Positions 22,629-49,100 of a stretch of DNA of 64,000 nt are shown piece by piece (position 1 is the stretch's first letter; every line of letters starts with the position of its first letter). The position numbers were made by a program, and so were the translations under genes. Below the pieces are notes generated by a model, which was given only the letters and a program-made list of their open reading frames with translations, did no database searches and was not told where the DNA came from. The DNA comes from a virus (lineage: Duplodnaviria > Heunggongvirae > Uroviricota > Caudoviricetes): the IMG/VR virus record IMGVR_UViG_3300023371_000080. One strand, written 5' to 3'.

Positions 22629-23846
22629 TTAATTTCCAATCTCAATCAAATACTTAATAGTCATCTGGTCTTCCTTATACACTACAATCTCATCATTTCG
22701 AAGCATACCTCTATCGGCGTGTGCATGTAGGCAGTTTGCTCCCTGCTTAAACTGTTGTAACTTATTATAATCAAGGTTATAATACTTGCTGTCAAAATTG
22801 TACACATCATAAGGCGTTCCATAAGCCACATCAAAGATTGCCATATAAGCAGTGTTGTTACCGCCGTGAGCCCAATAAGAACCAGAGAGCGAGGTATAAC
22901 CAATACTCTTTGCACACTTGGGGGCGTAATACACTCCGTACCCAAACATCTTTCCTGTAATTACGGCATTAGTAGGTCTAAGTACTAAGCCTGTCTTAAT
23001 AATAGACCAGAAATTCTCACTACGACTGCCATGGAACAGAAGTCTAGTGTCCTTGATGTCATTCTCCTTAACAAACTTATCAAAACGCTCCTGAGTCTTC
23101 AGATTGGTAACTCTCCAAGCCTTTTTAAACTTATCAGCGGATTCTTTCATCAAAGTCTTAATTAGGGCAATATCATCTTTTGTAGTTTCTTCCATAACAA
23201 GACCAAGCTCTTCGAGAATGGTCTGCTGTTTCTTTTCGGTTGTGGTAACAGACTCAATCTCTGGCTTCACATAAATCTGTCCACGCATTACATCAAGAAG
23301 ATCTTGCTCCTTGGTGATAATCTTTGAAAAATCTTCTGTCTTATTTGCCAGACAATAACGTACATCACTCATTCTTCTAGGAATAACTGTAAACAAGTTA
23401 AGCAGATTGGCATTAAACGCATCAACGGTTATGCTATTATTGGCGAGCTCATCAATAATCTTCTGTGCTGCATCCACCATATCCTGAGTAACAGCAGATG
23501 CTTTTACAGTATAGTTCTTGTTAATAGTCTCACGGGCAAGACTCTGAAGCTTATCCACAATTGCTTTTATGGCTGCGTTCTCAATGTCCTTGTATGGGCT
23601 TTCAGGATTGGTAGAGGAAACTTCCTCCACCAAGTCCTTCTTAAGATCAGTTACATCCTGGTAACCCTTTTTGAGTTTTGATTTGATTTGTGAATCCCAT
23701 TTAGACATAGGATAATATGCTGTTGTTTTAGTTGCATCTACTCTGCCGTATTCAACACGGAACTGATTGCCTTCTGGAAAAAGATTATAGTACTTATTAT
23801 TATTTGCCGTAGTTACCATAATCAAATAAGTAGGTCTTACTTCCAT
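22629..23846 (-). CDS. poly(ADP-ribose) polymerase-like protein (WGR domain + PARP catalytic domain, H-Y-E type)
   Basis: N-term KYYNLFPEGNQFRVEYGRVDA (WGR-like); catalytic LLFHGSRSENFWSIIKTGL, GKMFGYGVYYA, NDEIVVY matching PARP1 LLWHGSR/GYMFGKGIYFA/YNEYIVY. Confidence 0.75.
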   Translation of the reverse strand: MEVRPTYLIMVTTANNNKYYNLFPEGNQFRVEYGRVDATKTTAYYPMSKWDSQIKSKLKKGYQDVTDLKKDLVEEVSSTNPESPYKDIENAAIKAIVDKLQSLARETINKNYTVKASAVTQDMVDAAQKIIDELANNSITVDAFNANLLNLFTVIPRRMSDVRYCLANKTEDFSKIITKEQDLLDVMRGQIYVKPEIESVTTTEKKQQTILEELGLVMEETTKDDIALIKTLMKESADKFKKAWRVTNLKTQERFDKFVKENDIKDTRLLFHGSRSENFWSIIKTGLVLRPTNAVITGKMFGYGVYYAPKCAKSIGYTSLSGSYWAHGGNNTAYMAIFDVAYGTPYDVYNFDSKYYNLDYNKLQQFKQGANCLHAHADRGMLRNDEIVVYKEDQMTIKYLIEIGN

Positions 23847-28782: not shown

Positions 28783-29182
28783 GTGTAATCTCCCCATTTT
28801 CAATTTTAGTAATTAATTTATCCAACATTCTATATACAGAAGGCAAGCCACCTCTATCATCAATATAAGCATTTGCATATGTTTTGCGCCCACCAAAAGA
28901 TATAGAACTGTCACAGTTAATACCTTTATATTTAATGCCTACATTTTCCATATACTCCTTGATTATTGGATGCTGCGCTTCGCCATTTCCTGTTAAAATA
29001 ACAACCTCTGAATAAGGCTCCCAACGTTTGAGGAGCGTAATAACATCACTATAAGAACGACCAAGTTTATGAAAATCATAGATGGTATCATCGAAGTCTA
29101 CGCAAAAGATGAGTTTGCCATACTTCTTGAATTCATCTTCAAGTCTTTGATAGCAATTTTCTTCAGAAAGATAAAAATCCAT
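28775..29182 (-). CDS. small HAD-like hydrolase
   Basis: FCVDFDDTIYDF (DxDxT) motif; 135 aa; overlapping start/stop with neighbours. Confidence 0.4.
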   Translation of the reverse strand: MDFYLSEENCYQRLEDEFKKYGKLIFCVDFDDTIYDFHKLGRSYSDVITLLKRWEPYSEVVILTGNGEAQHPIIKEYMENVGIKYKGINCDSSISFGGRKTYANAYIDDRGGLPSVYRMLDKLITKIENGEITHE

Positions 29183-30660
29183 TAAAAATTACCTCCGTGC
29201 AATCTATCTCTAATTTCTGCAAGAGTCTGCTCTTTAGTCATTACTCCATCTTTGAATATGGTGACTAAATGATTCTGATAATCATATTTTGCTTCATCCC
29301 ATGTAGCACCATCTATATAAACAAGTGCTTCTTTCTCTCGACTCCATCTAACGGAACAACATCCCTTCTGCGACTTCTTAAAACCACCATCTTTAGGATT
29401 CTTGAATATCGGATATGGCTTACCGTCAATCTCACAATAAGTCGCCTTGATGCAAGAACTAAAAGTATCTCTTGTGAAAGGCTTCAGAATACCATCTTCC
29501 TCAACACACTGGAACGAGAACGAACCAACACCAAGAGCAACATTGGAACAAGCAAATCCATTTTCCATAAGAATTTGATAAATCTGTTCGCAACGCTGGA
29601 TAGTAATACTGTCGCCATAAATTGCTTTCACATGAGGATTAAGCACTTTATATCCCTTACTATTAATAGTACCACCAAAGATATCCCAAAGTTTAAAAAC
29701 GGTTTTGGTTACAACCTCAACACAGTCACCAGAGTCACCACGCATAAGCATGCAACCATTGTGTGCAAGGATTTCTTCCTTAAGTCTAGGAAGAATATTG
29801 TCAATTACATTCCAATAATCATAAGAGTCAAGTACAGCAGAAAAACTTGTGTTAGGGTAAATTTCTGTAAGCAGTCTTCTAAGAAGAGTTTCCTCATCGC
29901 CATCAACGGCATAGTTACTGCACATTACAGAATGCTCAGTAGAAGGCGAACCAAAAGCCACAGGTTCTTTTGTACAATCACAGTTATAATTTGCCTCAAG
30001 GTAAGGAATTGTAGGAACAGTTGCCGTATTCAAGAAGGATAGACACCAACCAGCTCCCGCCTTTTCAGCAGATTGTAGACATTCTTCACCTCTAAAGTCG
30101 AATGCACCAAGTGCTCTTGCTCTCGGAATATTGTCATCACAAGTGAGGTCATAATACTTGTTGACAATTTCTCTATATGTATAACCAACAGTAGCAGCAA
30201 GCATTGGATGCCATATCTCAGCAGAAATAAGGGATTCTAAACTCTGAGGCAACCACGCAAAATCAGGGTGAGTGTTTGTAATACCAAACATCGGCACATG
30301 CATAGGTACAAGCGTTCCTTCGGGAAGTGCTACAATTTCAATAGGAAGATAGCCAAGCTTGTGAAGATGTTCAATTTTATCAATTTTATATGTGTCCTTG
30401 CCAAGAGTTGCATCCATAACTCTCTTATATTCAGAGATTACTTCATCAAAAGACTTGTTAAAGAATTCGTTGTTAAAATAATCAATAAGATAGGTCTTAA
30501 TGAATCCCTGAAGTCCAAACATTACCACCTTGTCCCATCTCTTTACTCTGCTCATGCGAGGAGTAAAGTAAGATACGGACTTAGTAATGCCCTTGGGGAG
30601 CATTTCGGCATGGACAGCCTTATAGAAATCAATTAACAACATAGGATTTGTTCTTCTCAT
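29182..30660 (-). CDS. nadV: nicotinamide phosphoribosyltransferase family protein (NAMPT/NadV-like; alternatively Namat-like NAD-forming transferase)
   Basis: N-terminal LLIDFYKAVH (cf. NAMPT DSYK), MLMRGDSGD phosphoribosyl-binding region; 492 aa. Confidence 0.7.
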   Translation of the reverse strand: MRRTNPMLLIDFYKAVHAEMLPKGITKSVSYFTPRMSRVKRWDKVVMFGLQGFIKTYLIDYFNNEFFNKSFDEVISEYKRVMDATLGKDTYKIDKIEHLHKLGYLPIEIVALPEGTLVPMHVPMFGITNTHPDFAWLPQSLESLISAEIWHPMLAATVGYTYREIVNKYYDLTCDDNIPRARALGAFDFRGEECLQSAEKAGAGWCLSFLNTATVPTIPYLEANYNCDCTKEPVAFGSPSTEHSVMCSNYAVDGDEETLLRRLLTEIYPNTSFSAVLDSYDYWNVIDNILPRLKEEILAHNGCMLMRGDSGDCVEVVTKTVFKLWDIFGGTINSKGYKVLNPHVKAIYGDSITIQRCEQIYQILMENGFACSNVALGVGSFSFQCVEEDGILKPFTRDTFSSCIKATYCEIDGKPYPIFKNPKDGGFKKSQKGCCSVRWSREKEALVYIDGATWDEAKYDYQNHLVTIFKDGVMTKEQTLAEIRDRLHGGNF

Positions 30661-32143: not shown

Positions 32144-35100
32144 TTATTCGATAGTATAGGATGTAAGCCAGACGTCTTCTCTGCTATAATCCTGCACCCA
32201 GTTCTCTCCGTCCTTTTTCCACGCAGGTTTCTTTGTTGTACGATAGTCGATAATCATGCCTGATGCAAGAGGGTTGCTCTCGTAGTCCTTTTTCTTTAGC
32301 TTAGCGTTAACCGTCTGACCATCGTAGAGTCTGTATAATGAAAGTTTCGGAGTATACTTGGTATTAATATCTAAGACAACTGCCTTGGTAGGTTTGGTAG
32401 GATCGACAAGGTCAATGTATCCTAGGAACTCCTTTTGTGCCTCAATTTGAGATAAGATAGGCAGTTCTTGATCTGGTACCATAGAACACAGTTCGGATAA
32501 CATTGTTGTCATACCTTCTGACTCAAAGCGGTATTGCTTCTCGGTAGATGATTTGGCATACTTCTCAATAATCTCGACTGGTAAATCTAGTTTCTCCTTC
32601 TTTAAAACCTTCTTGCCATTGTACTTATCATAAAGTTCGGCTATCTTTAAGAGTTTTAGGCTGCCTCCAAACTCGGAGAAGTAATTTAAGCGAGTGAGTA
32701 TTTCTCTCTGTCTGCTATTTCCAGGGAATACGGATAGTAGATCCACAAAAGAGTCAAACTTCTGATCTTTCATAGAATATAATTGCTCTGATACTTCCGA
32801 GTTCATATATTTAAGGCTCGATAAGCCTTTATAGATGCTATTCGTTTCTTTTTCCATGTTATAATTCGCACGAGAGTGACGGAACTTGATCGGATTCAAG
32901 GTAATACCGAAGTATGGCATCTCTGCAGTTAACTTTGCAGTTCTATCAAGGTCATCGCTATATAAAGATAATGCCACCGTAAAGTATTCATTTGGATATG
33001 TCGCTTTCAAATAAGCTCCATATAAACTATCAATTGCAACAGAGAGACTATGCGAAGCATTAAATGAATAATGCGCTGCATCTTCTACAACCTGCCATGT
33101 CTCGTTAAAACCCTCTTCACGACCAACGTTCTTAACCCAGCCTGCACGAAGCTGAGACTTAAGTTCGTTTAGCTCTTCTTCCTTGAACTTTTTCTTTGCA
33201 ATCTTTTTAATAATATCATATGTACCCTTTTCCTCTACACCAAGCCAAACAAGATATTTCATTATCGACTCTTGGTACATTAAGTAATGGAAGGAATCTT
33301 TGAGAATATCATCAAGCTCCTTGACACCCGTTGTATACGGCATTCTATCTACAAAATTGTTAAGTAGTGATGCAAATCCAGGACGAATAGCGGCAACATA
33401 TGCCGACAACTCCGACAGGTTTCTAGGTTTATACTTCTTCAGTATCTGTTTATCGTAGTCGGAGTCTGCCTGGTTGATGGTCGTCGTCAATCCCTTGGCA
33501 TAAACATCCCATACCTTATCATCACAATTCGCAACAAGGGTGTTAATGTCATCCATCGGCTTCCCAAGGAGTTTATAAACATCACTAATAAGTTGGTAAA
33601 CCGTTACTGTCAGATAGTCATTCTTCAGGAACTTGTAAACATCACAGTTATAACCATCAAGGCAGCAGCAAGTAACATCTCCCACCTTAACCAATCCAAC
33701 CATCTCGGAAATCTTATCATTGGAAAGCAAGAACGAGCAAGGCGACGGAGCAACACTCTCTACTACGCCTCGGAATTTTTTACTGCCCTCAATCAAATCT
33801 TTCCACTTCTCATCATTTTCATATGTTTCAAGGTTTTTGGCGACTTCATCATACTCGGAGATATGCATATCGTGAGCCTTGCACCAAAGTCTAAATGCTG
33901 AAGACTCTTGCAAAGGTTTGTATGCAATCATATAATAGATGCCATCTTCACCAAGTAAGTCTTTACTTGCTTGAATAACAGGGGTAACATCTGCCCAGTT
34001 AAGGTCGATATCGGGAAGGCTGCGGCTGGAGAGGATACGTTCTGCCGACATAAATCTTGTAGGATAAAGAGTAATCGGAGCACTGATTCTATCGACCTCG
34101 GTAAGTCCCAACAGTTTATTAACGTAAAATGAAACCGCACTACCTCTTCCACTCTTAGTCAGAATTGCATCATATTCCTTAACTGCTCTGTCAACGATAT
34201 AATGGTCGAGGATGAAGTAATCTGCCATACCACAGTCTTCGATAATCTTGTATTCATACTTGATTTGTTCAATATACTCGGACCATCTTTCCTTAGGTAC
34301 GTTGCTGCGCTCCTTTGCCCAGCCTTCATTGATGAGCTTCTTAAGAACTTTATTGCTATCTCCCTCTGTAATCTTAGGGATTTTGAACTCTTTGTCAATA
34401 GTTATGCCTTCGGCATTATCGAAAACAAGTGTATTCTGCAGTGCCTCTGTTACCTCGTCCTCTGTGAGAATGCCTTGTATTTTATATCTTCGATAAATCT
34501 CATCGGAGTCTGGATAATCAAGACAAAAACCACTTTCTTCTTCATATACAATGCCCTTTGCTTTTAAGAATAAATCTCTATATTTAGCATCTTCGGGATA
34601 AATATAATGCGAGTCATTGGCGTGGATAATGGGAATATTGTATTTTCTATGAACTTCCATTATCTTTTTATTATATTCTGCCTGATCGTGATCCGCATGA
34701 GATTGTACCTCAAGATAGAAGTTTGCTCCAAAATGTTCTTTTACAGGCACCAAGAAGTCCGTATACCAAGAATCTTCTCCAACTGCTATTGTTTTATAAA
34801 TAGGTCTTTCTTCTTCGTGTCCTGTGGTATCTATATAACCTGGGCCACTATCATATACTCGAACCTTTTCATACCCAATTATTTCTTTGGTTTTTTCGAA
34901 ACTTTTGGGCTTAAACATCCTTCCTGCAACACAGGCAGTAGTCACAACGACCTCATCTCCTGGTAAAGAAAGCAAGAGGTTAAGATCGATTCTCGGCTTA
35001 TAGTAGTAACCATTGGTATTTGCCGTAGACATTATTCTATTGATTTGTCTTCTGGCATTCTCCGTCATTGCAACGAGGATTATATGGTACATTGCTCTTG

Positions 35101-35359
35101 ATGACTTATCATTGATATCATCAACATAATATGCCTCGACTCCATAAATACACTTTAGGCCATTCTCTTGACACAATGTATATGCCTCGAAGATGTTTCC
35201 TTGGTATCCATGCTCGGTTGTAAAATATGTAGTGTGTCCTAATTCTTTAGCTCTGTTGACATAATCAATAGGCTTTGATACGCAGTCAAGCGTTCTTAGG
35301 TTTGAGTACATAGTATGTTTATGATAGTTGTTGTATCTCATTCTTTCACTCCTAATCAT
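32144..35359 (-). CDS. dnaE: DNA polymerase III alpha subunit (DnaE-like, PHP + polymerase core)
   Basis: N-terminal PHP motif YNNYHKHTMYS..EHG, 1071 aa; exact start among M1/M7 uncertain. Confidence 0.8.
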   Translation of the reverse strand: MIRSERMRYNNYHKHTMYSNLRTLDCVSKPIDYVNRAKELGHTTYFTTEHGYQGNIFEAYTLCQENGLKCIYGVEAYYVDDINDKSSRAMYHIILVAMTENARRQINRIMSTANTNGYYYKPRIDLNLLLSLPGDEVVVTTACVAGRMFKPKSFEKTKEIIGYEKVRVYDSGPGYIDTTGHEEERPIYKTIAVGEDSWYTDFLVPVKEHFGANFYLEVQSHADHDQAEYNKKIMEVHRKYNIPIIHANDSHYIYPEDAKYRDLFLKAKGIVYEEESGFCLDYPDSDEIYRRYKIQGILTEDEVTEALQNTLVFDNAEGITIDKEFKIPKITEGDSNKVLKKLINEGWAKERSNVPKERWSEYIEQIKYEYKIIEDCGMADYFILDHYIVDRAVKEYDAILTKSGRGSAVSFYVNKLLGLTEVDRISAPITLYPTRFMSAERILSSRSLPDIDLNWADVTPVIQASKDLLGEDGIYYMIAYKPLQESSAFRLWCKAHDMHISEYDEVAKNLETYENDEKWKDLIEGSKKFRGVVESVAPSPCSFLLSNDKISEMVGLVKVGDVTCCCLDGYNCDVYKFLKNDYLTVTVYQLISDVYKLLGKPMDDINTLVANCDDKVWDVYAKGLTTTINQADSDYDKQILKKYKPRNLSELSAYVAAIRPGFASLLNNFVDRMPYTTGVKELDDILKDSFHYLMYQESIMKYLVWLGVEEKGTYDIIKKIAKKKFKEEELNELKSQLRAGWVKNVGREEGFNETWQVVEDAAHYSFNASHSLSVAIDSLYGAYLKATYPNEYFTVALSLYSDDLDRTAKLTAEMPYFGITLNPIKFRHSRANYNMEKETNSIYKGLSSLKYMNSEVSEQLYSMKDQKFDSFVDLLSVFPGNSRQREILTRLNYFSEFGGSLKLLKIAELYDKYNGKKVLKKEKLDLPVEIIEKYAKSSTEKQYRFESEGMTTMLSELCSMVPDQELPILSQIEAQKEFLGYIDLVDPTKPTKAVVLDINTKYTPKLSLYRLYDGQTVNAKLKKKDYESNPLASGMIIDYRTTKKPAWKKDGENWVQDYSREDVWLTSYTIE

Positions 35360-36045: not shown

Positions 36046-37647
36046 TTAATCATTTTGTTGCGTATATTCATCAATTGTAAGTTGCAAAAATTTGTTTTTC
36101 CCATAGAACGGATTTGCAAGCACGCCTACCGCCACAATCTCACCGTCATTACCAAGAGTTTGCCAATCCATACAGTTCCACTTAACAACAATAACTCCAG
36201 TCTCATTATCAATAATCTTAAGGTGTTTCTTGGTTGAGAACGTACTAACCTCATAATCGTTGGTTCTTACCAATACCTTAACTGGAGGAAAACCCTCCCC
36301 GCTAATACGATTGATTGCGTTCAGTTGCTTCACCAAATTCTCATTAATCTGACTCGGAGCAAGTTCTATATCTGCCTCTATATTAACAGAGAACTCAACA
36401 TCTTTTAGTTCTTCCTCAATGACAGTCTTGAACTGCTCAAACTTATCTGCATCTATAAACGCACCCGCAGCATTGGGGTGTCCCTGGCAAAGACACAGTC
36501 CTGTACCATTTGCGATCTCAAGGAAGTTCTCGGTTCCCATACTTCTCATACTTCCCGCATATTGTTCATCTCGCTCTTTTAAAATAAATAGTGGCCTCTG
36601 ATACATTGCTAGAAGCTTATTTGCAATAAGCCCCGTGATTTCTGCATCCGTGTCATTGTCGAGCATAAAGAACATACACTTCCTATCGAGCTGTAACTCG
36701 CCCTGCTCAAGTAATCCATCAAGCAAATCTGCTACGACTTTATTCTGTTCTTCTCTGCAGTTTTTCAGATCCTTAACTAACTCGTCAATTTCATCCTCGT
36801 CTTCCGCAAGAAAAACATTCATTGCCTTTTCATTCTGATGCATTCTCATAGCAGCATTAACCAACGGTCCAATACTGAAACTGACCGACTGACTGTCAAA
36901 TGTGTAATTACCGACCATCTTCTGCACCATAGGATTTCTGAACTGTGCCAATCCTCGATATGCAATATATCTATTCTCTGGTTCCGCCATACTTGACATA
37001 TCTGCTATAAGTCCTATCGCTGCATATGCCCATAAATCATCACTATAATCAGTTAGATTTTGGTAATCGCAATATTGCACGAATTTAAGACAAACTCCCG
37101 CACCCGACAAGAACTCATTTGGATATCCGTTTGCCGAACTCACGAGCACAAAATCCAAATCTGCGTCAAATAATCTTTGCTCAGGTAAGTGATGGTCAAA
37201 TACCACAAGTTTTACGCCAGTGTCAAGAATTCGCTTGTAGACTTCAGGATCGTTGTTGAGAGAATCGACGATGATCATCACATCAACGCCATTAAGTAGC
37301 TTCAAATCAAAATCTTCGGCACCATGTTTCTTACCATCATTGATAACGCACTTAACATCCGCACCACACTTACGCAAATATCGTGTGATAATGGCATTGC
37401 TGCTACAACCATCTGCATCCACGTCTGCCAACACAAGGAACTTTTCTCCCATTGTAATGGCATCGTCTATAATCTGATATGCCTCGTCAAGTCCTTTTAA
37501 TTCTTCGAACGGTATCATATCATCTTCCGTTGGTTTGAGGAAGTCGGAAATATCCTCGATTCCTCTCGAATCCAATATCGCCTCAATTATTTCAAAATCA
37601 TCTTCCATCTGCCTGCCATCGATCTTGGCAGTAAGTTGTTTTATCAA
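36046..37647 (-). CDS. DHH/DHHA1 phosphoesterase, RecJ-like ssDNA exonuclease
   Basis: Motif I LVLADVDADG, motif III VVFDHH, DHHA1 GHPNAAG. Confidence 0.7.
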   Translation of the reverse strand: MIKQLTAKIDGRQMEDDFEIIEAILDSRGIEDISDFLKPTEDDMIPFEELKGLDEAYQIIDDAITMGEKFLVLADVDADGCSSNAIITRYLRKCGADVKCVINDGKKHGAEDFDLKLLNGVDVMIIVDSLNNDPEVYKRILDTGVKLVVFDHHLPEQRLFDADLDFVLVSSANGYPNEFLSGAGVCLKFVQYCDYQNLTDYSDDLWAYAAIGLIADMSSMAEPENRYIAYRGLAQFRNPMVQKMVGNYTFDSQSVSFSIGPLVNAAMRMHQNEKAMNVFLAEDEDEIDELVKDLKNCREEQNKVVADLLDGLLEQGELQLDRKCMFFMLDNDTDAEITGLIANKLLAMYQRPLFILKERDEQYAGSMRSMGTENFLEIANGTGLCLCQGHPNAAGAFIDADKFEQFKTVIEEELKDVEFSVNIEADIELAPSQINENLVKQLNAINRISGEGFPPVKVLVRTNDYEVSTFSTKKHLKIIDNETGVIVVKWNCMDWQTLGNDGEIVAVGVLANPFYGKNKFLQLTIDEYTQQND

Positions 37648-38647: not shown

Positions 38648-38878
38648 CTAAATAACACCGTCTTTGGCAGCACAAACTATTCTATATGTAAAGTCAATGT
38701 GGTCTTTATCCACAAAAATAGTAGGAAATCTATTGCCTTTCATAACTTCAACGGCTTCATCTATGCCGCCATATGGCTTAAGTTTACTCAATGCGTGTGC
38801 ATACTCACAAGCATTATCGCATTCTTCTGTATACTGTTTACCATATCTATTTAAACATTCAAAGCATGGATTATACAT
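38648..38878 (-). CDS. hypothetical small Cys-containing protein
   Basis: 76 aa, CFEC..C..C. Confidence 0.35.
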   Translation of the reverse strand: MYNPCFECLNRYGKQYTEECDNACEYAHALSKLKPYGGIDEAVEVMKGNRFPTIFVDKDHIDFTYRIVCAAKDGVI

Positions 38879-39711: not shown

Positions 39712-40044
39712 TCATTTCCCGTCCTCCGCGTATTTCTGAAAAACTTTACAAATAGCCATGCCAATATACCCTGCGTACATTTCACCAGCACGGCATAACG
39801 ACTCACGAAAATCCAAAACGCTTATATTATTTATTACTGCTTTATCTGCTTCTGCAATACCGCTTTCCATAGCTCGCATAGTCTCCTCAAAAATCTCCCT
39901 CGCAACCTCTGCCCTCGGTGCGACATCGGCAATCGGAGCTTCGACCATAAGTTTTCTCGCGCCTCCTGCGGGACCGACGTGTACTCTGTCGTATTCGGCT
40001 ATGAGCTTATCAATATCTGTATATCGTGCCATATCATTCACCAC
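39712..40044 (-). CDS. hypothetical protein
   Basis: 110 aa. Confidence 0.4.
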   Translation of the reverse strand: MVNDMARYTDIDKLIAEYDRVHVGPAGGARKLMVEAPIADVAPRAEVAREIFEETMRAMESGIAEADKAVINNISVLDFRESLCRAGEMYAGYIGMAICKVFQKYAEDGK

Positions 40045-40405
40045 CTTTCATCTTCGCACCACAATTACAATAAGGTTCTTTAACATGTTCATTTCTTCCA
40101 CAAATACTACACCTATAAGCTATGTATTGATGAATAACAAGACGACCTTCTTCGTCGAATGTCGCAGGAATCATTGACTCGAATGGTTCTTCAAGCCACT
40201 CTCCCTCTATCTGTTTGCGATAGCCTGCATCGTAGAGTTGTTCCGCAACGCAATGTTTGCAATCAATCTTAGTATGACACTCATCAATTGAAGTATCTCT
40301 ACAAAATTTCAATACTCTCGCCATTTCCTCAATCTGCTTCTCTTTGCTCATTTTCTTTTCTTTCTCCGTAACTACAAAACGCATTTGGCCCCGTTGGAAC
40401 ATCAT
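40034..40405 (-). CDS. hypothetical zinc-finger protein
   Basis: CHTKIDCKHC and CSICGR..CNC motifs. Confidence 0.4.
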   Translation of the reverse strand: MMFQRGQMRFVVTEKEKKMSKEKQIEEMARVLKFCRDTSIDECHTKIDCKHCVAEQLYDAGYRKQIEGEWLEEPFESMIPATFDEEGRLVIHQYIAYRCSICGRNEHVKEPYCNCGAKMKGGE

Positions 40406-40595
40406 AGTCTACGGTCCATTTCATACAAGTTGTGTAATCTCCCCAATCTCTATAATGCTTGCAATCCTTGCATCTCACAACTTCTACAACATTTGCAGCA
40501 TCTTTGTATGCTGTGCAATCTGCTACAATAGCCCCTTTATGAGTTGCAAGAAACTGACAATTTTCCTTATATAAACACTTTTCACACTTATCCAT
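40329..40595 (-). CDS. hypothetical Cys-rich protein
   Basis: CEKC..C..C..CKDCKHY motifs; overlaps neighbours out of frame. Confidence 0.35.
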   Translation of the reverse strand: MDKCEKCLYKENCQFLATHKGAIVADCTAYKDAANVVEVVRCKDCKHYRDWGDYTTCMKWTVDYDVPTGPNAFCSYGERKENEQREAD

Positions 40596-40929
40596 TGTTT
40601 TCCTCCAACAATTCTCTTGCGACCTTTTCTACATCAAAAACATCAATATATCCAACATAAGGATATTTATTAAGTGCCTTATCGCTCAACATATCTCTCA
40701 TCTTCCGAACAGCGTCGGCTTTAATTGTCTTGATTTCTTTCCGCAACTTCCCATTATCTTCTACCCAAGCTTCGTTGTACTGCTGTGCCTCTTTGATGAG
40801 ATCCTGCAATCTTTCAATCTCCGTATTCTGACAATGATACTCACAGTAGTCTCTTGTCTTTTTATAACAATTGCCGTCTTGACACCAATGGCAATTTTTA
40901 AAATTACACCTAGGCAAGTCTATTCTCAT
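40588..40929 (-). CDS. hypothetical Cys-rich protein
   Basis: CNFKNCHWCQDGNCY..C..C. Confidence 0.4.
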   Translation of the reverse strand: MRIDLPRCNFKNCHWCQDGNCYKKTRDYCEYHCQNTEIERLQDLIKEAQQYNEAWVEDNGKLRKEIKTIKADAVRKMRDMLSDKALNKYPYVGYIDVFDVEKVARELLEENNG

Positions 40930-41981
40930 ATTTCGTCCTCTTCTTCTAAATTTTCTATTGGTTCTATTTCGTGTTTAAGTATATACTCAAACTCCACCTT
41001 GGTGTCATCACAAGGTGCTGATTTATTATCAAGAGTTAAATTATCTTCCCAATTCCAATATCGGATCTCCAACTGCCTCATAGTACAAAATGTCTTGAGC
41101 AAATCTGCATTCCTTTTGGTGTTATCAAGCGGCAAACTCTTGTCTAACATAAAAGTGATTCGCTTTGGATTCAATGAAATGAGCAGCTTTGCCTGGGTTG
41201 GGCTCAATGAGTTACTACCAAGAGCAACCACATTGTTATAACCCCAAGAGTCTAATATAAGCACCGATTTCTCACTCTCTACCACAAGGATCTCATTCTC
41301 ATATAGCGAACTGTAATTTTCTGAGTACCCGAAAAGAGTTTGAGACATTGGACCATTCTCAAGGTATAGATACTTAGGCTCAAACTCTTCTGGTATCCCA
41401 TTAAGTCTGCCCTTTATCGCCATGATTTCTCCCGTAGAAGTTCTGATAGGCAGTGTAATTCTTTGGCTCAGAACATCGTAACCTATGCCCCATTTTCGTT
41501 GAGTACTTAGCGAAATTCCATCCTTAAGCCAAAGAGTATTTGGCGTATTGCCGTATTGCTCAAGTATCTCTTCTGGGTAAGTAGTTACGGCTATTTCGCC
41601 ATTAGAACGATTTAGACCGTCATATATCCCCCCAAAGAGCCCCAACTTGCGTTTGTAGTTATATATGGAATCAAGATGTAATTCCTGTTTGATAACATTC
41701 ATTACATCTTTAAAGGAAATGTTCTTGCTTTTGACAAGGTAGTTGATTAGGTCTAACGAGAGGTTTCGCTCATAGTCTTTCACGAATAAATTCTCATTGT
41801 CTTGTAATCTAATCACCACCGCAGTCGGATTCATTCCGTCCTCAAAAGCACACCTGATTTCTCGGTGACCTCTGCGTATTTTAGAAAAACCAAAGGTGTC
41901 GAGGATATGCTCTATGGACTCTGGTTGCTCTAATAAACGTTCTTTTACTTCTTTGAACACATCTCTGACACCTCCAATCAT
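40926..41981 (-). CDS. possible DNA primase (Toprim-like region)
   Basis: ILVVESEKSVLILDSWGYNNVVALGSNSLS and FMLDKSLPLDNTKRNAD resemble Toprim E..DxD segments; located with helicase/polymerase genes. Confidence 0.35.
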   Translation of the reverse strand: MIGGVRDVFKEVKERLLEQPESIEHILDTFGFSKIRRGHREIRCAFEDGMNPTAVVIRLQDNENLFVKDYERNLSLDLINYLVKSKNISFKDVMNVIKQELHLDSIYNYKRKLGLFGGIYDGLNRSNGEIAVTTYPEEILEQYGNTPNTLWLKDGISLSTQRKWGIGYDVLSQRITLPIRTSTGEIMAIKGRLNGIPEEFEPKYLYLENGPMSQTLFGYSENYSSLYENEILVVESEKSVLILDSWGYNNVVALGSNSLSPTQAKLLISLNPKRITFMLDKSLPLDNTKRNADLLKTFCTMRQLEIRYWNWEDNLTLDNKSAPCDDTKVEFEYILKHEIEPIENLEEEDEI

Positions 41982-41998: not shown

Positions 41999-42598
41999 TT
42001 ATCTTAATGAAGCTTTAAAGTTACTATATGTTCCAAACTTTTCTTTCCATCCAGCAACGATCTCCGTGGGATTCAGATTGAACTCCTTGCAAACATATGT
42101 GATATACTCATTCTCATATAGTTTCTTCCTACGTTTATTAAACTTCTTAACCTCGGCAAAAACTTCGTCTCTTGAAACACCATACTCCTTAAGGAGATAT
42201 GTGCTCAAATCGCATTCTGAGTACTCAATAAACTGGCAGATGGGACACATACACTCAGGTACATCATAATTATAACCACTAGAACAAAAGTCATCAAACA
42301 ATGTATCCTCATCCATAACTATTAGCTCCTCTTCAGAAAAATCTCTATAGCTATGAGTGGTGCCATCCCATTTTTCCTTGTTCCATTCATTTTCCATAAT
42401 CATCTTAAGCATTTCTTGTTTAGTGGGTCTTTCAAGTGCCTCATCACAACAGAAAATATGTCCATTGACGCACTCCATCATTTCGCAGTCACTCAAAGAC
42501 AAGTCATAACCGCTTTCATTACGTCCACAAATTTCGCAGATATAACTCGAACTACTACTATTAGTCACAAAATCTTTTCTAAACTTCATAATCGTCAC
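41999..42598 (-). CDS. member 5 of tandem paralog family with conserved N-terminal KFRKDFVTNSSSSSYI motif; Cys-rich C-terminal part
   Basis: MTIMKFRKDFVTNSSSSSYICEICG..; many CxxC. Confidence 0.5.
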   Translation of the reverse strand: MTIMKFRKDFVTNSSSSSYICEICGRNESGYDLSLSDCEMMECVNGHIFCCDEALERPTKQEMLKMIMENEWNKEKWDGTTHSYRDFSEEELIVMDEDTLFDDFCSSGYNYDVPECMCPICQFIEYSECDLSTYLLKEYGVSRDEVFAEVKKFNKRRKKLYENEYITYVCKEFNLNPTEIVAGWKEKFGTYSNFKASLR

Positions 42599-43011
42599 CC
42601 ATTAAAACCTGCACCATACTGAACATCAATATCTGCAAATCCGTTTTCCTCTTCAATATTATCAATTATTTCTGTGTTAAAATCCTCATAAGACACATCG
42701 TAATCTACCTCGCCATCTTCGTCCGCATAAAGATCGTCATAATCTCTTACGACAACAAATCTAGAATCCGAATGTTCCATAATATATTCCTTGCTTGGCG
42801 TAGCATTTATTCCTGCCCAATCATATTCAAGCCACTCAGACCATCTACTATGACGAATTTCATCCAGCACCTCTTCAGATGTGTAAATTTCAATTTGCTT
42901 ACCATACTTGTCAAGTATGGTCTTTGCCTTTTCTTCATCTGCAATTCTTGCAAAGCAAACAATATAACTGCTAGAACTGCTATTTGTAACAAAATCTGTT
43001 CTAATTTTCAT
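42595..43011 (-). CDS. member 4 of tandem paralog family (MKIRTDFVTNSSSSSYIV..), acidic C-terminus
   Basis: shared 17-aa N-terminal motif; stop/start overlap. Confidence 0.5.
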   Translation of the reverse strand: MKIRTDFVTNSSSSSYIVCFARIADEEKAKTILDKYGKQIEIYTSEEVLDEIRHSRWSEWLEYDWAGINATPSKEYIMEHSDSRFVVVRDYDDLYADEDGEVDYDVSYEDFNTEIIDNIEEENGFADIDVQYGAGFNG

Positions 43012-43023
43012 ATTAAATTCTCC

Positions 43024-43494
43024 TTAATGATGTGATATTCTTTGAATTGTGCACGCCACATTAGGCATGATATCATGCTCCAAATCAGAGTTGCAACAAT
43101 CATCATATTCAACTTCTACAAATACGGTTTTATCTTCCATATCTTTAAGAATATTATTAACAATATTATCGAGATGTTTTTTAACTTCTTCTGCCCCTTC
43201 TTTTGTCTTTACATAATCTACTGAAGCCGAATAAGAACATCTAGTGCGTCTACGATATGCTTCTTCTACATCCCACTTTACTGTCCATTTGAGCCCATCT
43301 CTTACTCTATTAATCGCTTCGTCTTTATCGAATTTTTCTGCCTCGTCAATATCTCTTATTACTATGCCAACTTTATCGATCGCCCAATTTGGAAACCCAG
43401 ATACTAGTTCGCTATATATTGTATCTTTGCCCTTAAATCCAAGAATAAAGCTTGAGCTACTACTATTAGTTACATAATCTGTTCTAATCTTCAT
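43024..43494 (-). CDS. member 3 of tandem paralog family (MKIRTDYVTNSSSSSFIL..)
   Basis: shared N-terminal motif. Confidence 0.5.
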   Translation of the reverse strand: MKIRTDYVTNSSSSSFILGFKGKDTIYSELVSGFPNWAIDKVGIVIRDIDEAEKFDKDEAINRVRDGLKWTVKWDVEEAYRRRTRCSYSASVDYVKTKEGAEEVKKHLDNIVNNILKDMEDKTVFVEVEYDDCCNSDLEHDIMPNVACTIQRISHH

Positions 43495-43816
43495 ACAACA
43501 AGTCCCTCCAATCTACTTCGTCATCATTTTTATCTGGCAAATCAAAGCTCCAATCGCTCCAATCAACCTTATTCATATCGACATCAATTTTTTCTAAAAA
43601 CTCGTACATATCAAAATTGTCCATAGTAGTAGAACCTGTAATATAACCATCGCTTTCTCTGATACCCCAAGATTCTTCCGAATAATCAATCCCTAATTTT
43701 TCTCCCAATTCTGAGTGGCGTCGGATTGCCTCAATCTGGTCGTTATCAAGGTGCTTTTTAGCAATCAAAAAACTACTGCTTGATGAATTAGTTACAAAGT
43801 CGTGTCTAATTTTCAT
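43484..43816 (-). CDS. member 2 of tandem paralog family (MKIRHDFVTNSSSSSFLI..), acidic
   Basis: shared N-terminal motif. Confidence 0.5.
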   Translation of the reverse strand: MKIRHDFVTNSSSSSFLIAKKHLDNDQIEAIRRHSELGEKLGIDYSEESWGIRESDGYITGSTTMDNFDMYEFLEKIDVDMNKVDWSDWSFDLPDKNDDEVDWRDLLYED

Positions 43817-43828
43817 ATTTTCACCTCA

Positions 43829-44200
43829 TCAATCACAATAACCATATTCCCAAGGAATATTATATTTACCTAAAATATCTTCAATAATATCCCAATCATA
43901 TCTACCACAATCATCGTTGTCAATAATAAAATGATTATCATACTTTGTATCATCATCCCATCCCCATCCGTTACGGATTTTTGTTGGGTTATCTGTTGTT
44001 GCTTCATCAATGTGATATCTACGAGCCACGCATTCATCAGTTACATCGTCTAAAGTATATTCCTCATCAGCCCATTTTTTACACTCTAGATTTGCAATTT
44101 CAAGCAAAATTTCAATTAATCTATCACGAGAAACATCATTTCTGCTAATAATAAAACTACTACTAGAACTATTAGTCACAAAATCTCTGCGTACTTTCAT
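43829..44200 (-). CDS. member 1 of tandem paralog family (MKVRRDFVTNSSSSSFII..), acidic
   Basis: shared N-terminal motif; overlaps upstream enzyme gene. Confidence 0.5.
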   Translation of the reverse strand: MKVRRDFVTNSSSSSFIISRNDVSRDRLIEILLEIANLECKKWADEEYTLDDVTDECVARRYHIDEATTDNPTKIRNGWGWDDDTKYDNHFIIDNDDCGRYDWDIIEDILGKYNIPWEYGYCD

Positions 44201-45272
44201 ACAGATCTTTCTCCTCTCTATTACACAACACTATCTGTCTTCTAATGGGGCATCCACCACGACATTCGCACTGTCTACCGCAACCCTTGCAAGAATGTCT
44301 GAAATGATCACGAAAATCTTCAAATTGCTTACTATCCCAAGCATTCTGTACAGTGTCATTTGAAATATCATATGCCCATCTCATATCTTGATTGTCAAAA
44401 CTGCAAGGCAGCATCTTCATATCAGAAGTAATATAAGCAGACCATCTGCCACCCTCACAAGTGTCGAAACTATCTTCGTTGATATTAGATGTCATATTGA
44501 TGAGTGCAGGAACCGTGCAAGAGTCAAATCCAATCTTAAAATCAAACTGGTGCGTATCAATAATATGAAAGAACTCCTTTACTCTCTCATCTTCAATGTT
44601 CAGAACATTACTCTCCTGACCCAGTCCAACGGGCTTATGAAGCAGAAAGATAATTGCGTTAACACCCTTGGGAAAGTCATTATTCTTGAGCCTCTCAATT
44701 GCCTCGTCAATAGAGTTATTTCCCAATACATAATGAATATTAGTCTTTACTCCTGCATCTAAAAGCATCTGAATTGCCCTATAGGTATGCTCCTGGCGAT
44801 ACCAACTAATTGCCACTGCTCCACAAAGTTCCTTGCAGAGAGCCACAATCTCATCAGTAAATCCAAGACCAGAAGATGTGAAGTTGGGTACGATTTTATT
44901 GGCTCTGCAATATCTTAGAATCTTTTCAAAATCTTCGTGCTGGTCCACATCTCCACGTCCACCAAGAGCAAACTGAAATGTTTTACCTTTACACTCATCA
45001 ACAATTCTTTTGAAATTATCGAATGACATATTGGGAAACTTAGTCTTTAGTCCATTCTGATAACACTGAACGCCTGACTTAATACACAGGCCACTAGCGC
45101 CGTGAACACAATGTCCCATTACGCCGATATCTAACAATTCAGGGAAAGAAGTCATAAATGGATCTACTCCTGTATCCTTGCCGTCCTCAATAACTCCACT
45201 ACGCACATAAAATCCTGTGTCGGGATTAAACATAGATACGAACTTATTCTTCTTGTCAATTTTTCTAATCAT
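44172..45272 (-). CDS. Cys-rich enzyme with SPASM-type C-terminal Cys motif; putative non-canonical radical-SAM maturase
   Basis: N-terminal Cys cluster GHCVHGASGLCIKSGVQC followed ~35 aa later by GGE-like FALGGRGD; C-terminal CKGCGRQCECRGGC = Cx2Cx5Cx3C plus flanking Cys. Confidence 0.35.
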   Translation of the reverse strand: MIRKIDKKNKFVSMFNPDTGFYVRSGVIEDGKDTGVDPFMTSFPELLDIGVMGHCVHGASGLCIKSGVQCYQNGLKTKFPNMSFDNFKRIVDECKGKTFQFALGGRGDVDQHEDFEKILRYCRANKIVPNFTSSGLGFTDEIVALCKELCGAVAISWYRQEHTYRAIQMLLDAGVKTNIHYVLGNNSIDEAIERLKNNDFPKGVNAIIFLLHKPVGLGQESNVLNIEDERVKEFFHIIDTHQFDFKIGFDSCTVPALINMTSNINEDSFDTCEGGRWSAYITSDMKMLPCSFDNQDMRWAYDISNDTVQNAWDSKQFEDFRDHFRHSCKGCGRQCECRGGCPIRRQIVLCNREEKDLYESTQRFCD

Positions 45273-45302: not shown

Positions 45303-45337
45303 CATTATTATAATACAAATTCCTTAATTTGTCAAGG
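45303..45337 (-). promoter_or_regulatory. promoter with TTTACAAT repeats at 45343-45366
   Basis: minus strand TTGACAAATTAAGGAATTTGTATTATAAT. Confidence 0.5.
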
Positions 45338-45369: not shown

Positions 45370-46935
45370 TTACTGAATATATCCGTGCTTGAATTTCGCT
45401 TTTGCTGCGTCGCTCCAAAGTCCCCACGCGCCCTGGAACGAGAAAATATACCCTATACCAGTATCTGAACTAACCGCTCCAGATGAACGGCTCTTCTCAA
45501 TAAACACCGCTCTATACACCATATCGTCCTTTGGCTGCCATCCAACATTCTCCCATTGATTAGTATTCTTGTTTAATACCGTCTTGAAGGGATTGCAATA
45601 ATACTTGCTCGAAGGATCGAACTCCTCTTGATACATTGAACGACACAGAATCATCAAGTCGCATACCTCTTTAATCTGCTTACTCATTGATAATACTGAA
45701 CTATCAAGGAATAACTTGCCAAGCGTATTAATCGCAAGCTGAAGTGTACAAATTACTTGAGTTCCTGGATACTTACGAGAAAGTGTCTCAAATCTGCGGC
45801 TATCCTGAATAAGAGAAAGCCAGCTATTGTCATTGTTAGTTGAGAGGTCAATCTTAAATGTGTCATACACGCAAGTGTTTACACCTCTATTAAGAATATA
45901 CAGACGCATCTTCTTAATTGCCAAGCTTACATCACTATCTGGAATGCTAATAAAATAAAGTTGCCCCTTATATCTGTCTCTCCAATACTCCTGGGCCTTT
46001 GTGATGTATTCCCTGTCTTCCTTACTGATGTTTCCGTTTATCAGTTTAGTCTTTGTTAAGTTATAATAGTTGAAATGCTTAGTCAATATCAACAAAAGGA
46101 AGCCTATCTTAAACGCCTTAGATCTCTGCTCGTTGGAAATTATCATACATTTGCGACCCTCGTGCATCATCGACATAAGAATGCTAAGAACCATCGTCGT
46201 CTTACCTACGTTGGAATATCCACCGATGATAGTCATACCATCTGGAATGCCGTTGACCTGTTTCGAGAAATATCTTAAAGCTTCTACTGGATTCCCCATA
46301 CAATCATCATCGAAGTATTCAAATGGAGTTCCAGCCTCCTCTCCTCTTTCAAGAGATTCAATAAATTCATCCGTGATATCTAATTCTTCTTCTTCAAGAA
46401 CCTTACTTGAATACCCCGTGCCAAAACTTTCAAGTTTCGATGTGTACCAGTCGGTAACCTGTTCACTCGACATTCTAGTAAAAAGTCTCAATGGGTTAAT
46501 TGTTTTACCCTCATATTGGATAGGTTCAAGTAGATTAAAACCAAACTTGTGCATATCAATAATCATATTTGATTTCAGAAGATTGTCAAGGTAGCTCTCG
46601 TAGTTCTGATTATTCACGCAATCCGCCATATTCTTAATTGCCTTGAAACCACCGCTCTCTTCAAGCTTCTCTCTCACATCTTCTGATACATATGTTAAAA
46701 CGGACACCTCGTCAAACACCGTACACTTTTTATCTCTAAGTGTCTTCAAGATGCCGTAAATTAATCTCGCATCCTTTGTTAAAAATTTGGAGCTATCGAT
46801 ATTTGTGTCCTCTACCAGCAACATATCATTAACCATACTGCCAATCACGTTCGCCTCGATATTGACACGCCCCTCAAGTAATTCCTTGGGAATTTTCTCG
46901 GTAACTCCACTTATATATAAATTATTCATTAACAA
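45370..46935 (-). CDS. dnaB: replicative DNA helicase, DnaB-like
   Basis: Walker A GGYSNVGKTTMVLSIL, RecA-like C-terminal domain, 521 aa. Confidence 0.65.
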   Translation of the reverse strand: MLMNNLYISGVTEKIPKELLEGRVNIEANVIGSMVNDMLLVEDTNIDSSKFLTKDARLIYGILKTLRDKKCTVFDEVSVLTYVSEDVREKLEESGGFKAIKNMADCVNNQNYESYLDNLLKSNMIIDMHKFGFNLLEPIQYEGKTINPLRLFTRMSSEQVTDWYTSKLESFGTGYSSKVLEEEELDITDEFIESLERGEEAGTPFEYFDDDCMGNPVEALRYFSKQVNGIPDGMTIIGGYSNVGKTTMVLSILMSMMHEGRKCMIISNEQRSKAFKIGFLLLILTKHFNYYNLTKTKLINGNISKEDREYITKAQEYWRDRYKGQLYFISIPDSDVSLAIKKMRLYILNRGVNTCVYDTFKIDLSTNNDNSWLSLIQDSRRFETLSRKYPGTQVICTLQLAINTLGKLFLDSSVLSMSKQIKEVCDLMILCRSMYQEEFDPSSKYYCNPFKTVLNKNTNQWENVGWQPKDDMVYRAVFIEKSRSSGAVSSDTGIGYIFSFQGAWGLWSDAAKAKFKHGYIQ

Positions 46936-47837: not shown

Positions 47838-49100
47838 TCAAACCTCGTCATTCAGTCCAAGAATTTCCTCGATGGCGTTGACATCACTAGTCTTCATCTC
47901 TGCAGAAAGCTTGTTGTTGTAATCTACAAGGTGCTTCTTAACCTTTGCCTTAGTAGTCGCGTCGCTCGCCTTGAATGCACTTCTAATTGCATTCAATCTA
48001 TCATCATCAAGAGTGATAACCACATCCTCGTCAGCAGTTTCTTCTTCCTCATTGAAGATGTCTTCATCATCAAGGTCAAAAGGCACATCGTCATCTGCTG
48101 CACCGTCTTCGCCCTTAGCAAGTGTTTCTTTAAGGGCTGCAAGAAGCTCCATATCTTCCTCATCGAGGCCTTCCTCGACTACGGGTTCTGCCTTCTTAGT
48201 GGTCTTCTTAGTCGTAGTCTTCTTGGTATCAGAAGTGGCACCGCCGTTCTTTCTTTCGGCTTCAATAGCATCCTTAATTGCCTGGATAAACTCATCGGGA
48301 TCAAGATTAATTTCATCGGTAATATACTTGAATCTACTCTTTGCATCTGCAACGAGTGCATCATCTCTGAACTTAATCTTACGAGTCTCGTCAATTACTG
48401 CCTTACGTTCCTTTTTCTTCTTGGTCATAGGATTAGCATCTCCTACTTCCTGCTTCTCGATGTTTCTATCAAAATATCCGAATCCAATTACATGGCTGGA
48501 GTTCTTGATGCTATTAAAATACTTCATAGGCATATTAGCAGTAAGAGAAGTATAATTGGCACCAGTAAACAGGTCAGACTGATCCTTCTCCTTAACGTGA
48601 GATGTCCAATAAGTCTTTACACCAACCTTCTCAAGTCTCGTAATTTCCTTCTTAACAGTATCAATAACACGGTCCATACCTTTTCCGAAGCCGCCCTCAA
48701 CACTATTGATGCTGGTAGCCTTTGTGAAATCTTTCTTACTAATATTCTCTCTATTCCATGCGTCGATGGTATATGCCTCTGCAATCTCAAATGCGGCATC
48801 AAGAGTATCGAGAACCACAACCTTGAGGTCTGGATAGTCCGAATCCTTATTTTTTACAATATCATCGACAACTTCCTTCATCTTCTTCCAAGTAGGAACG
48901 GGCTCTGCTACTACACCCTCGATTGCAGATACACCGTCCTCAGTACCCATATCTAACACGATATAGCCATCAGATCCAAACTCCTTCTCGCAAATCTGAT
49001 ACATCAGAGTTGTCTTACCAAACCCACTTGGGGCCATAATACCCACCATATAATCATTGATATTGGTACTTACACTAACTTTCTTTCCAAACTTACCCAT
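47838..49100 (-). CDS. Sak4-like RecA-fold ATPase (AAA_24 family) with long acidic C-terminal extension
   Basis: Walker A GIMAPSGFGKTT, Walker B VVVLDTLD; D/E-rich tail. Confidence 0.6.
   Translation of the reverse strand: MGKFGKKVSVSTNINDYMVGIMAPSGFGKTTLMYQICEKEFGSDGYIVLDMGTEDGVSAIEGVVAEPVPTWKKMKEVVDDIVKNKDSDYPDLKVVVLDTLDAAFEIAEAYTIDAWNRENISKKDFTKATSINSVEGGFGKGMDRVIDTVKKEITRLEKVGVKTYWTSHVKEKDQSDLFTGANYTSLTANMPMKYFNSIKNSSHVIGFGYFDRNIEKQEVGDANPMTKKKKERKAVIDETRKIKFRDDALVADAKSRFKYITDEINLDPDEFIQAIKDAIEAERKNGGATSDTKKTTTKKTTKKAEPVVEEGLDEEDMELLAALKETLAKGEDGAADDDVPFDLDDEDIFNEEEETADEDVVITLDDDRLNAIRSAFKASDATTKAKVKKHLVDYNNKLSAEMKTSDVNAIEEILGLNDEV

Follow-up and report, generated by a model that had tools for sequence, protein, structure and literature searches.

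The 64,000-nt stretch of a Caudoviricetes virus analysed here (IMG/VR record IMGVR_UViG_3300023371_000080; hereafter the window) encodes a radical S-adenosylmethionine (SAM)/SPASM enzyme of 366 aa, followed on the same strand by five small proteins that share an N-terminal tag of about 18 residues and diverge completely after it. Tag and enzyme recur together in thousands of phages, E. coli phage RB43 among them. The fold class of the enzyme is known, but the combination of a portable tag on unrelated full-length phage proteins with a radical SAM enzyme appears to be an undescribed system: literature searches with the tag motif, with phage radical SAM/SPASM enzymes and with RB43/Slopekvirus radical SAM found no description of it. 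We see an even chance that phages in general operate a tag-and-modify system, in which the radical SAM/SPASM enzyme installs a novel modification on the 18-residue tag or is steered by it. Our slight preference goes to a maturase-client system, in which the enzyme would recognize the tag and oxidatively modify its invariant F-V-[TS]-N-S-S-S core.

The N-terminal tag is under peptide-level selection

Each of the five small proteins starts with M-K-[IVF]-R-x-D-[FY]-V-T-N-S-S-S-S-S-[FY]-[IL], and M1, K2, R4, D6, V8, T9, N10 and S11–S15 are common to them all. A six-frame scan of the whole window found the motif only in these five genes, and five copies of a 15-residue invariant peptide cannot be there by chance. 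The copies differ at synonymous sites and use AGT, AGC, TCA, TCT and TCG for serine; because their serine codons differ, they are not recent DNA duplicates. In a set of 248 different tag proteins taken from related loci, conservation is strong at positions 1, 2, 4 and 6–17 and ends at about residue 18; position 7 is aromatic in 245 of them, hydrophobic residues always come after the serine run, and the consensus lacks the (C/S)xPxR sulfatase motif. The conserved 18 residues likewise contain no L/I-x-E prohead-protease site. Across all tags, the universally invariant core is [FY]-[VI]-[TS]-N-S-S-S.

The conservation is that of a peptide. In 478 distinct tag DNAs, all six serine codons are used at every serine position from S11 to S15, AGY/TCN switches, which need two substitutions, occur at each of these positions, and the 20 nt upstream carry at most 0.5 bit of information. 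Since every serine codon is used and third codon positions are nearly random (~0.2 bit), an RNA or DNA element is excluded. In the AlphaFold2 model of the 138-aa window protein (predicted local distance difference test score, pLDDT, 85), residues 1–11 are unstructured (pLDDT <50) and form the sole low-confidence part, yet they are the most conserved, and S12–I23 form β-strand 1 of an α/β domain with no known structural neighbour. Recognition of a free, extended N-terminus is suggested by the fixed distance between the motif and Met1 and by the disorder of residues 1–11.

The tag is widespread. A profile built from the N-terminal 40 residues of the window's five tag proteins matched 13,138 clusters at 50% identity (E ≤ 0.001), nearly always at residues 1–40; the 40-residue profile retrieved just 17 short, unnamed fragments from a further protein database, and a tblastn search of phages with the 22-aa tag gave no match, probably owing to the low-complexity filter. 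The tags match the N-terminus of phrog_7397, annotated as 'unknown function', which no PHROG annotation links with the family of the enzyme, phrog_7293. No Pfam, NCBIfam or PADLOC model describes tag proteins, and the five small proteins have no significant family in these databases.

The initial annotation had proposed that a conserved N-terminus is followed by variable payloads, and both parts of this proposal are borne out. Alignments of the five window proteins are not meaningful after residue ~18, and their payloads (the proteins without the tag) fall into five separate clusters, with a profile-profile probability below 12% for every pair. When the tag was removed from 487 tag proteins, 156 payload clusters resulted; profile-profile comparison of the 20 largest indicated relatedness for no more than 3 of 190 pairs. 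The tag is therefore portable, and elsewhere it precedes HIRAN or BspA-type leucine-rich repeat (LRR) domains (Pfam) in longer proteins. Tag proteins measure 110–196 aa in the window and up to 468 aa elsewhere, and several payloads have only ~80–100 aa. The window payloads are acidic (isoelectric point, pI, 4.1–5.1). Tag protein 5, a member of the payload cluster that is largest among the fetched loci, contains a zinc-ribbon-like CEICG...C..NGH.FCC...CPIC pattern; the payload of tag protein 3 ends ...DLEHDIMPNV...SHH and, by eye, has its C-terminal LEH motif in common with RB43ORF121c. The diverse, acidic or binding-type character of the payloads and their position among early and replication genes suggest a role in host takeover or anti-defence, and the payloads are plausibly effectors of this kind.

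Two other explanations of the motif were considered and set aside. The sequon N10-S11-S12 would permit N-glycosylation, which is unsupported, with no conserved glycosyltransferase among the neighbouring genes; an N-terminal active-site motif of the PIN, HAD or P-loop type is unsupported by any family match. A related N-terminal motif in shifted position, MKREVRRGVFETNSSSVHSL / MKRQIRRNVFESNSSSSHSF, occurs on another type of protein (L001:448-819, L002:448-819 and L004:20155-20289; L numbers denote loci), which is encoded ~10 kb from the enzyme and has no Pfam or PHROG match. This protein may represent a more distant branch of a TNSSS-tag superfamily.

The radical SAM/SPASM enzyme and its linkage to the tag

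The cysteine clusters of the 366-aa protein had led the initial annotation to regard it as radical SAM/SPASM-like, and the fold class is supported by profile, alignment and structural evidence. The motifs C55-x7-C63-x6-C70, FALGGRGD (residues 101–108) and C328-x2-C331-x5-C337-x3-C341 are all present as described. Of the profiles proposed for checking it, Pfam SPASM (PF13186) scored above its cut-off (24.0 versus 21.5 bits), the SPASM model TIGR04085 came just under its own (24.9 versus 27 bits), and Pfam PF04055 (threshold 29.5 bits) gave no match. Relatives do pass PF04055, namely those at L055 (30.7 bits) and L070 (32.2 bits), as well as P0221 and P0225, two of the 120 closest homologs listed. 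Weak NCBIfam matches to radical SAM/SPASM maturases jointly cover residues 65–345, and no NCBIfam model for maturases of peptides that are ribosomally synthesized and then post-translationally modified (RiPPs) comes near its cut-off. Pfam and NCBIfam reveal no PqqD-like RiPP recognition element (RRE) in the enzyme. With the enzyme as query, a database search yielded 4,276 proteins (E ≤ 0.001), of which the best 120 are all at least 75% identical to it, and phrog_7293, annotated as 'unknown function', matches at 2e-29. Searching the PDB with the sequence gave no match, and a profile search of the PDB gave the SPASM region of PqqE as its sole match (E = 0.3).

Twelve cysteines (C55, C63, C70, C150, C252, C272, C290, C328, C331, C337, C341 and C350) occur without exception in 11 homologs of 59–95% identity. 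They include the complete seven-cysteine SPASM pattern (C272, C290, C328-x2-C331-x5-C337-x3-C341 and C350), and C252 is a further cysteine of the SPASM region. The N-terminal triad C55/C63/C70 is spaced CX7CX6C, versus the canonical CX3CX2C, and aligns column for column with CDNACTFC (L055), CKHKCTFC (L070) and CKNKCPMC (L077); YQ follows the third cysteine both in the window enzyme (C70-YQ) and in the CDNACTFCYQ relative. Because distant relatives carry the canonical CX3CX2C in the aligned columns, the window clade appears to have loop insertions in a genuine radical SAM cluster motif, and across clades the spacings are CX7CX6C, CX7CX8C, CX7CX2C, CX6CX2C and CX3CX2C. A pseudo-enzyme devoid of the cluster was rejected, the triad being invariant and homologous to the canonical motif.

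The AlphaFold2 model of the enzyme (pLDDT 82.6; predicted template modelling score, pTM, 0.84) has strands and helices alternating over residues 46–249, which form the partial (β/α)6 TIM-barrel core of the radical SAM fold, and its low-confidence region is the cluster-binding loop at ~51–77 (blocks of pLDDT 43–55). The barrel is preceded by a three-strand N-terminal β extension (residues 1–45; strands 2–6, 11–15 and 22–24) that, judging from the model, could bind a strand. Foldseek matched many radical SAM structures with a probability of 1.00, the best being SuiB (5.6e-9), anSMEcpe (4k36, E 1.1e-8, TM 0.59), PqqE, SkfB, TigE, CteB and ChlB; the top matches are all radical SAM/SPASM enzymes that modify peptides or proteins. 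Some enzyme open reading frames (ORFs) are much longer than usual (L014:1428-3314 and L034:6632-8980), and the one at L014 has an in-frame upstream extension with homing-endonuclease-like repeats. A separate radical SAM protein at L125:3920-5752 is split by an intein with a NUMOD3 motif.

Examination of the genomic neighbours of the motif, which the initial annotation had called for, ties tag and enzyme together from both sides. Every one of 24 enzyme-seeded loci carries tag genes within a few kb (16/16 from IMG/VR and 8/8 from bacterial genome assemblies), and in 23 of the 24 they count as adjacent. In the 16 IMG/VR loci, two to six same-strand tag genes lie downstream of the enzyme, directly in 13 and within ~0.7 kb in three; the eight genome-assembly loci have at least one each, adjacent in seven and ~4.5 kb off in L024. 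When the pattern D[FY]VTNSSS of the tag served as seed (367 stretches in 72 loci), 57 loci had the enzyme on the same strand and no more than 10 kb away, and two of the other 15 lie on contigs of 416 and 504 kb that bear the enzyme elsewhere. Seven of the 72 encode a different radical SAM protein of ~350 aa with the canonical CNLKCxYC; its gene adjoins a tag gene directly or overlaps it in six of them and is found ~650 nt downstream in L088, and the tags of these seven loci are of a subtype with K4 and T14. Clustering of neighbouring ORFs in 33 loci showed that only tag genes and a radical SAM gene are common across lineages and revealed no conserved leader protease or exporter. Between one and 11 tag proteins accompany each enzyme.

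The seven K-type loci (L045, L048, L052, L056, L063, L085 and L088) form one group of ~16–180-kb contigs with conserved synteny, which by eye includes QueD-like and SbcD-like genes beside the tag and radical SAM genes; since they are one syntenic group, the association with the alternative enzyme may reflect a single evolutionary event. Radical SAM proteins with CNF[KQ]CPYC are encoded a few kb from tag arrays in three unrelated loci (L039:3118-4071, minus strand; L154:4723-5727; L161:12590-13567), and the one at L039 is MoaA-like (TIGR02666, 96 bits); this type may be another partner or a coincidence. Two IMG/VR contigs, 3300045988_167012 (L079) and 3300045988_154309 (L081), are 94–98% identical, and L079 differs by a clean 3.7-kb deletion (L081 5263-8947) that takes out the enzyme gene and two tag genes.

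Tag subtypes follow enzyme clades, not payload families. A third subtype, MK[ITV]RxGFVSNSSSSSF, is commoner still (590 stretches, in arrays of up to 11 genes); 43 of 75 loci with this G-type tag have an enzyme of the main family within 10 kb, and extra radical SAM genes are embedded in some of the arrays. In 109 of 114 loci all tags are of one subtype, as defined by residues 6 and 9 (D/T versus G/S), and payload families 0, 1, 2, 3, 10, 11 and 16 each contain both D/T and G/S tags. Enzymes with a full SPASM domain and an expanded cysteine loop go with R-D-T tags (52 enzymes), those with a partial SPASM domain and CX3CX2C or CX6-7CX2C with R-G-S tags (37 enzymes), and those with a partial SPASM domain and CX3CX2C with K-D-T tags (three enzymes).

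The system also occurs in cultured phages. Among cultured T4-like phages of the phage collection, 171 records contain the enzyme and 175 a tag protein, with matching counts per genus. Cultured phages with the system infect E. coli, Klebsiella, Citrobacter, Enterobacter and Cronobacter. The window enzyme is ~30% identical to the T4-like members. The radical SAM protein of Maroon, CPT_Maroon_163 (892 bits), is a clear member of phrog_7293, and RB43ORF121c (368 bits) is one of phrog_7397; the copies checked in cultured phages all bear the annotation 'hypothetical protein' or the generic 'radical SAM protein'. RB43 encodes the enzyme as RB43ORF169c and tag proteins as RB43ORF121c and RB43ORF116c, and RB43-like tag genes lie in a variable early region. 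Residues 64–147 of RB43ORF116c (L173:9933-10400), in its payload, match phrog_132 'head-tail adaptor' (3.3e-10), and its C-terminus ...KCGGGYDG resembles by eye the ...QYGAGFNG of the 138-aa window protein. RB43ORF169c (L174:14837-15910) stops before the C-terminal cysteine-rich part of its Maroon orthologue (L097:5899-7050, 383 aa, ...CRNCPAYAVCG...) and is followed by the small overlapping RB43ORF168c; the early end may be a frameshift or a sequencing error in the 2005 record.

Proposed mechanism and alternatives

The closest known systems are the leader-guided radical SAM/SPASM RiPP maturases (SuiB/StrB, CteB, SkfB, PqqE, PapB and ChlB/HtkB), which are alike in enzyme fold class, in the cysteine pattern of the SPASM auxiliary clusters and in having the enzyme gene beside several substrate-like genes with one conserved recognition sequence; the alternative radical SAM protein of the K-type loci aligns best with PapB. 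The maturase reading put forward in the initial annotation stands as far as genetic coupling is concerned, but this is not a classical RiPP system: the clients are proteins of 100–470 aa with folded, unrelated payloads and only ~18 conserved N-terminal residues, no conserved protease, exporter or Pfam-detectable RRE was found, the genes are phage-borne in replication and early regions, and the cysteine triad of the window enzyme is CX7CX6C. The anaerobic sulfatase-maturating enzymes (anSMEs; AtsB and anSMEcpe) are also radical SAM/SPASM enzymes without an RRE, modify a full-length protein and can oxidize a serine at Cβ, and one of them (4k36) is the second-best structural neighbour of the window enzyme. 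Unlike in anSME systems, however, the sulfatase-maturase model TIGR03942 scores only 10.3 bits against a cut-off of 349, the tag lacks (C/S)-x-P/A-x-R, the payloads are not sulfatases and each enzyme has many different clients. The internal proteins of T4 are hypervariable small phage proteins with a common short N-terminal capsid-targeting sequence. They resemble the tag proteins, which also occur in T4-like phages, in this combination of variable small proteins with a short conserved N-terminus, but the sequences are unrelated, the tag has no prohead-protease motif, and it is coupled genetically and phyletically to a radical SAM enzyme.

We infer the following sequence of events for the maturase-client system. 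The enzyme would recognize the tag M-K-x-R-x-D-F-V-T-N-S-S-S-S-S-F-[IV]-x as an extended peptide, probably while the tag emerges and ahead of payload folding. SAM would then be reductively cleaved at a [4Fe-4S] cluster bound by C55/C63/C70, a hydrogen atom would be abstracted from a residue in the F-V-[TS]-N-S-S-S core, and the two-electron oxidation would be finished via the SPASM auxiliary clusters. Candidate products are formylglycine from serine, for which the initial annotation had cited anSME-like enzymes, or a crosslink of the C-C or C-O type, for example an aromatic-to-Cβ cyclophane on F7-V8-T9. By analogy, both products have precedent in the nearest enzyme relatives, although the defining features of neither family are present. 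Triceptide synthases crosslink aromatic-X-X triplets as aromatic-to-Cβ cyclophanes (PMC11499958), and F7-V8-T9 of the tag fits this pattern. The variable C-terminal payloads would be the functional modules, expressed together with the replication genes.

Several observations weigh against such a modification. Placement of S12–S15 within the first payload β-strand of the AlphaFold2 model means that part of the serine run may be structural. The enzyme does not match PF04055, and with CX7CX6C in place of the usual CX2C its SAM-binding geometry is uncertain. The L079 variant lacks the enzyme and two tag genes and has kept three tag genes; ~20 kb separate the enzyme from the tag genes in RB43-like phages; and 32 of the 75 loci with a G-type tag lack an enzyme within 10 kb. 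The match between tag subtype and enzyme clade could, moreover, come partly from shared descent of the phage lineages.

Alternatively, the tag may dock the enzyme while each payload (LRR, HIRAN, zinc-ribbon or acidic) steers it to a different host or phage macromolecule, which would be what is modified. Such an adaptor role would explain the linkage and co-variation data equally well, along with the diversity of binding-type payload domains (LRR and HIRAN) and the variable number of tag proteins per enzyme. We nevertheless consider it unlikely: we know of no precedent for it among radical SAM/SPASM enzymes, the nearest structural relatives act on the peptide that they bind, the invariant polar TNSSS core resembles a reaction site more than a docking helix or strand, and several payloads are very small. 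Slightly less probable, in our judgement, is that the tag is a signal for capsid packaging and injection, or for polar β-zipper co-assembly, and that the radical SAM enzyme is a frequent neighbour with another substrate. The resemblance of the gene layout to T4 internal-protein loci, the separation of enzyme and tag genes in RB43-like phages, the 'head-tail adaptor' match of RB43ORF116c and the retention of tag genes in L079 all favour a targeting signal. Its difficulty is that the neighbourhood of the enzyme is kept across Firmicutes gut phages, jumbo phages and T4-like phages, that at least two, and probably more, unrelated radical SAM lineages have been recruited beside tag genes, and that no other gene family is common across lineages; the genes also lie in replication and early modules rather than structural ones, and the tag lacks a prohead-protease site.

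The tag proteins might instead share one fast-evolving fold, with the N-terminus (a β-strand with a serine-rich loop) as its most conserved structural or active-site element and no relation to the enzyme. The inclusion of S12–I23 in β-strand 1, the hydrophobic residues after every serine run and the distant relatedness of a few payload clusters agree with a single diverged family, whereas the disorder of residues 1–11, the low profile probabilities among the window payloads, the HIRAN and LRR domains after the same tag, the uniformity of the subtype in a genome across payload families and the very strong radical SAM linkage make it quite improbable. Finally, a repeat conserved as DNA or RNA (a translation-initiation region, regulator site or recombination hotspot) would explain why the motif, in genes so closely packed, always stands at the start codon; it is refuted by the codon analysis, in which all six serine codons, AGY/TCN switches and near-random third positions were seen, and we regard its probability as negligible. 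Among these readings, the maturase-client system remains the one towards which we lean.

Locus layout and significance

The enzyme gene and the five tag genes, all on the minus strand (Table 1), are packed like a single operon behind a promoter-like site. The six ORFs are present as initially annotated, and the lengths given for the first four small proteins are correct; the fifth has 196 aa rather than 199, the longer version starting at an upstream GTG (42598) and the conserved MKFRKDF start being the ATG at 42589. Stop and start codons had been reported to overlap throughout. They do so at two junctions, between the enzyme and the 123-aa gene (29 nt) and between the 110- and 156-aa genes (11 nt), whereas short gaps separate the 123- and 110-aa genes (12 nt), the 156- and 138-aa genes (12 nt) and the 138- and 196-aa genes (5 nt). 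A GGAG/GAGG-like site resembling a Shine-Dalgarno sequence lies 5' of each of the six genes. The DnaB-like gene and the gene of the enzyme are 97 nt apart, and a TTGACA-17 nt-TATAAT site in this gap would, from its consensus match, act as a promoter.

Table 1. Features of the locus and its surroundings (coordinates are positions in the 64-kb window)
Feature	Coordinates	Strand	Remarks
Radical SAM/SPASM enzyme, 366 aa	44172-45272	minus	GGRGD at residues 104-108
Tag protein 1, 123 aa	43829-44200	minus	tag at 44147-44200; pI 4.4; Trp/Asp-rich; payload cluster 15
Tag protein 2, 110 aa	43484-43816	minus	tag at 43763-43816; pI 4.3; payload cluster 3
Tag protein 3, 156 aa	43024-43494	minus	tag at 43441-43494; payload cluster 4
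Tag protein 4, 138 aa	42595-43011	minus	tag at 42958-43011; pI 4.1; payload cluster 5
Tag protein 5, 196 aa	41999-42589	minus	tag at 42536-42589; Cys-rich; payload cluster 0
Promoter-like site, TTGACA-17 nt-TATAAT	45307-45335	minus	12/12 match to the sigma-70 consensus
DnaB-like helicase	45370-46935		replication module
Primase-like gene	40926-41981		replication module
AAA_24 ATPase	47838-49100		replication module
Pol III alpha	32144-35359		replication module
RecJ-like DHH protein	36046-37647		replication module
PARP catalytic domain protein	22629-23846	minus	PF00644, 84 bits
NAMPT-like nicotinamide phosphoribosyltransferase	29182-30660	minus	PF04095, PF18127
Small Cys-rich ORFs, 76-123 aa	38386-40929	minus	CxxC pairs; e.g. 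40588-40929, 40329-40595, 40034-40405, 38648-38878

Judged from their predicted products, the genes around the operon are a phage replication module. The locus DNA had no similarity match in INPHARED. The nearest relatives of the enzyme come from contigs binned with Lachnospiraceae or Clostridiales genomes and from phage contigs (up to 240 kb), and the phage would infect anaerobic Firmicutes, probably Lachnospiraceae. Elsewhere in the window, the pairing of a PARP catalytic domain protein with a NAMPT-like enzyme suggests functions in NAD+ consumption and salvage, and the primase-like gene is separated from the next large genes by a series of small Cys-rich ORFs.

If the maturase-client system is real, it would constitute a large unrecognized class of ribosomal protein modification in viruses, in which one radical SAM maturase serves up to 11 full-length clients per genome via a portable tag and phages place a common chemical handle on rapidly diversifying early effector proteins. 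For enzymology, this would mean a new class of substrate and perhaps a new reaction, along with the unusual cluster loop CX7CX6C. The presence of the system in cultured phages of Enterobacteria, such as RB43, makes the question of modification directly testable. For phage biology, many 'hypothetical' early genes would be joined in one system and would become candidate host-takeover or anti-defence effectors.

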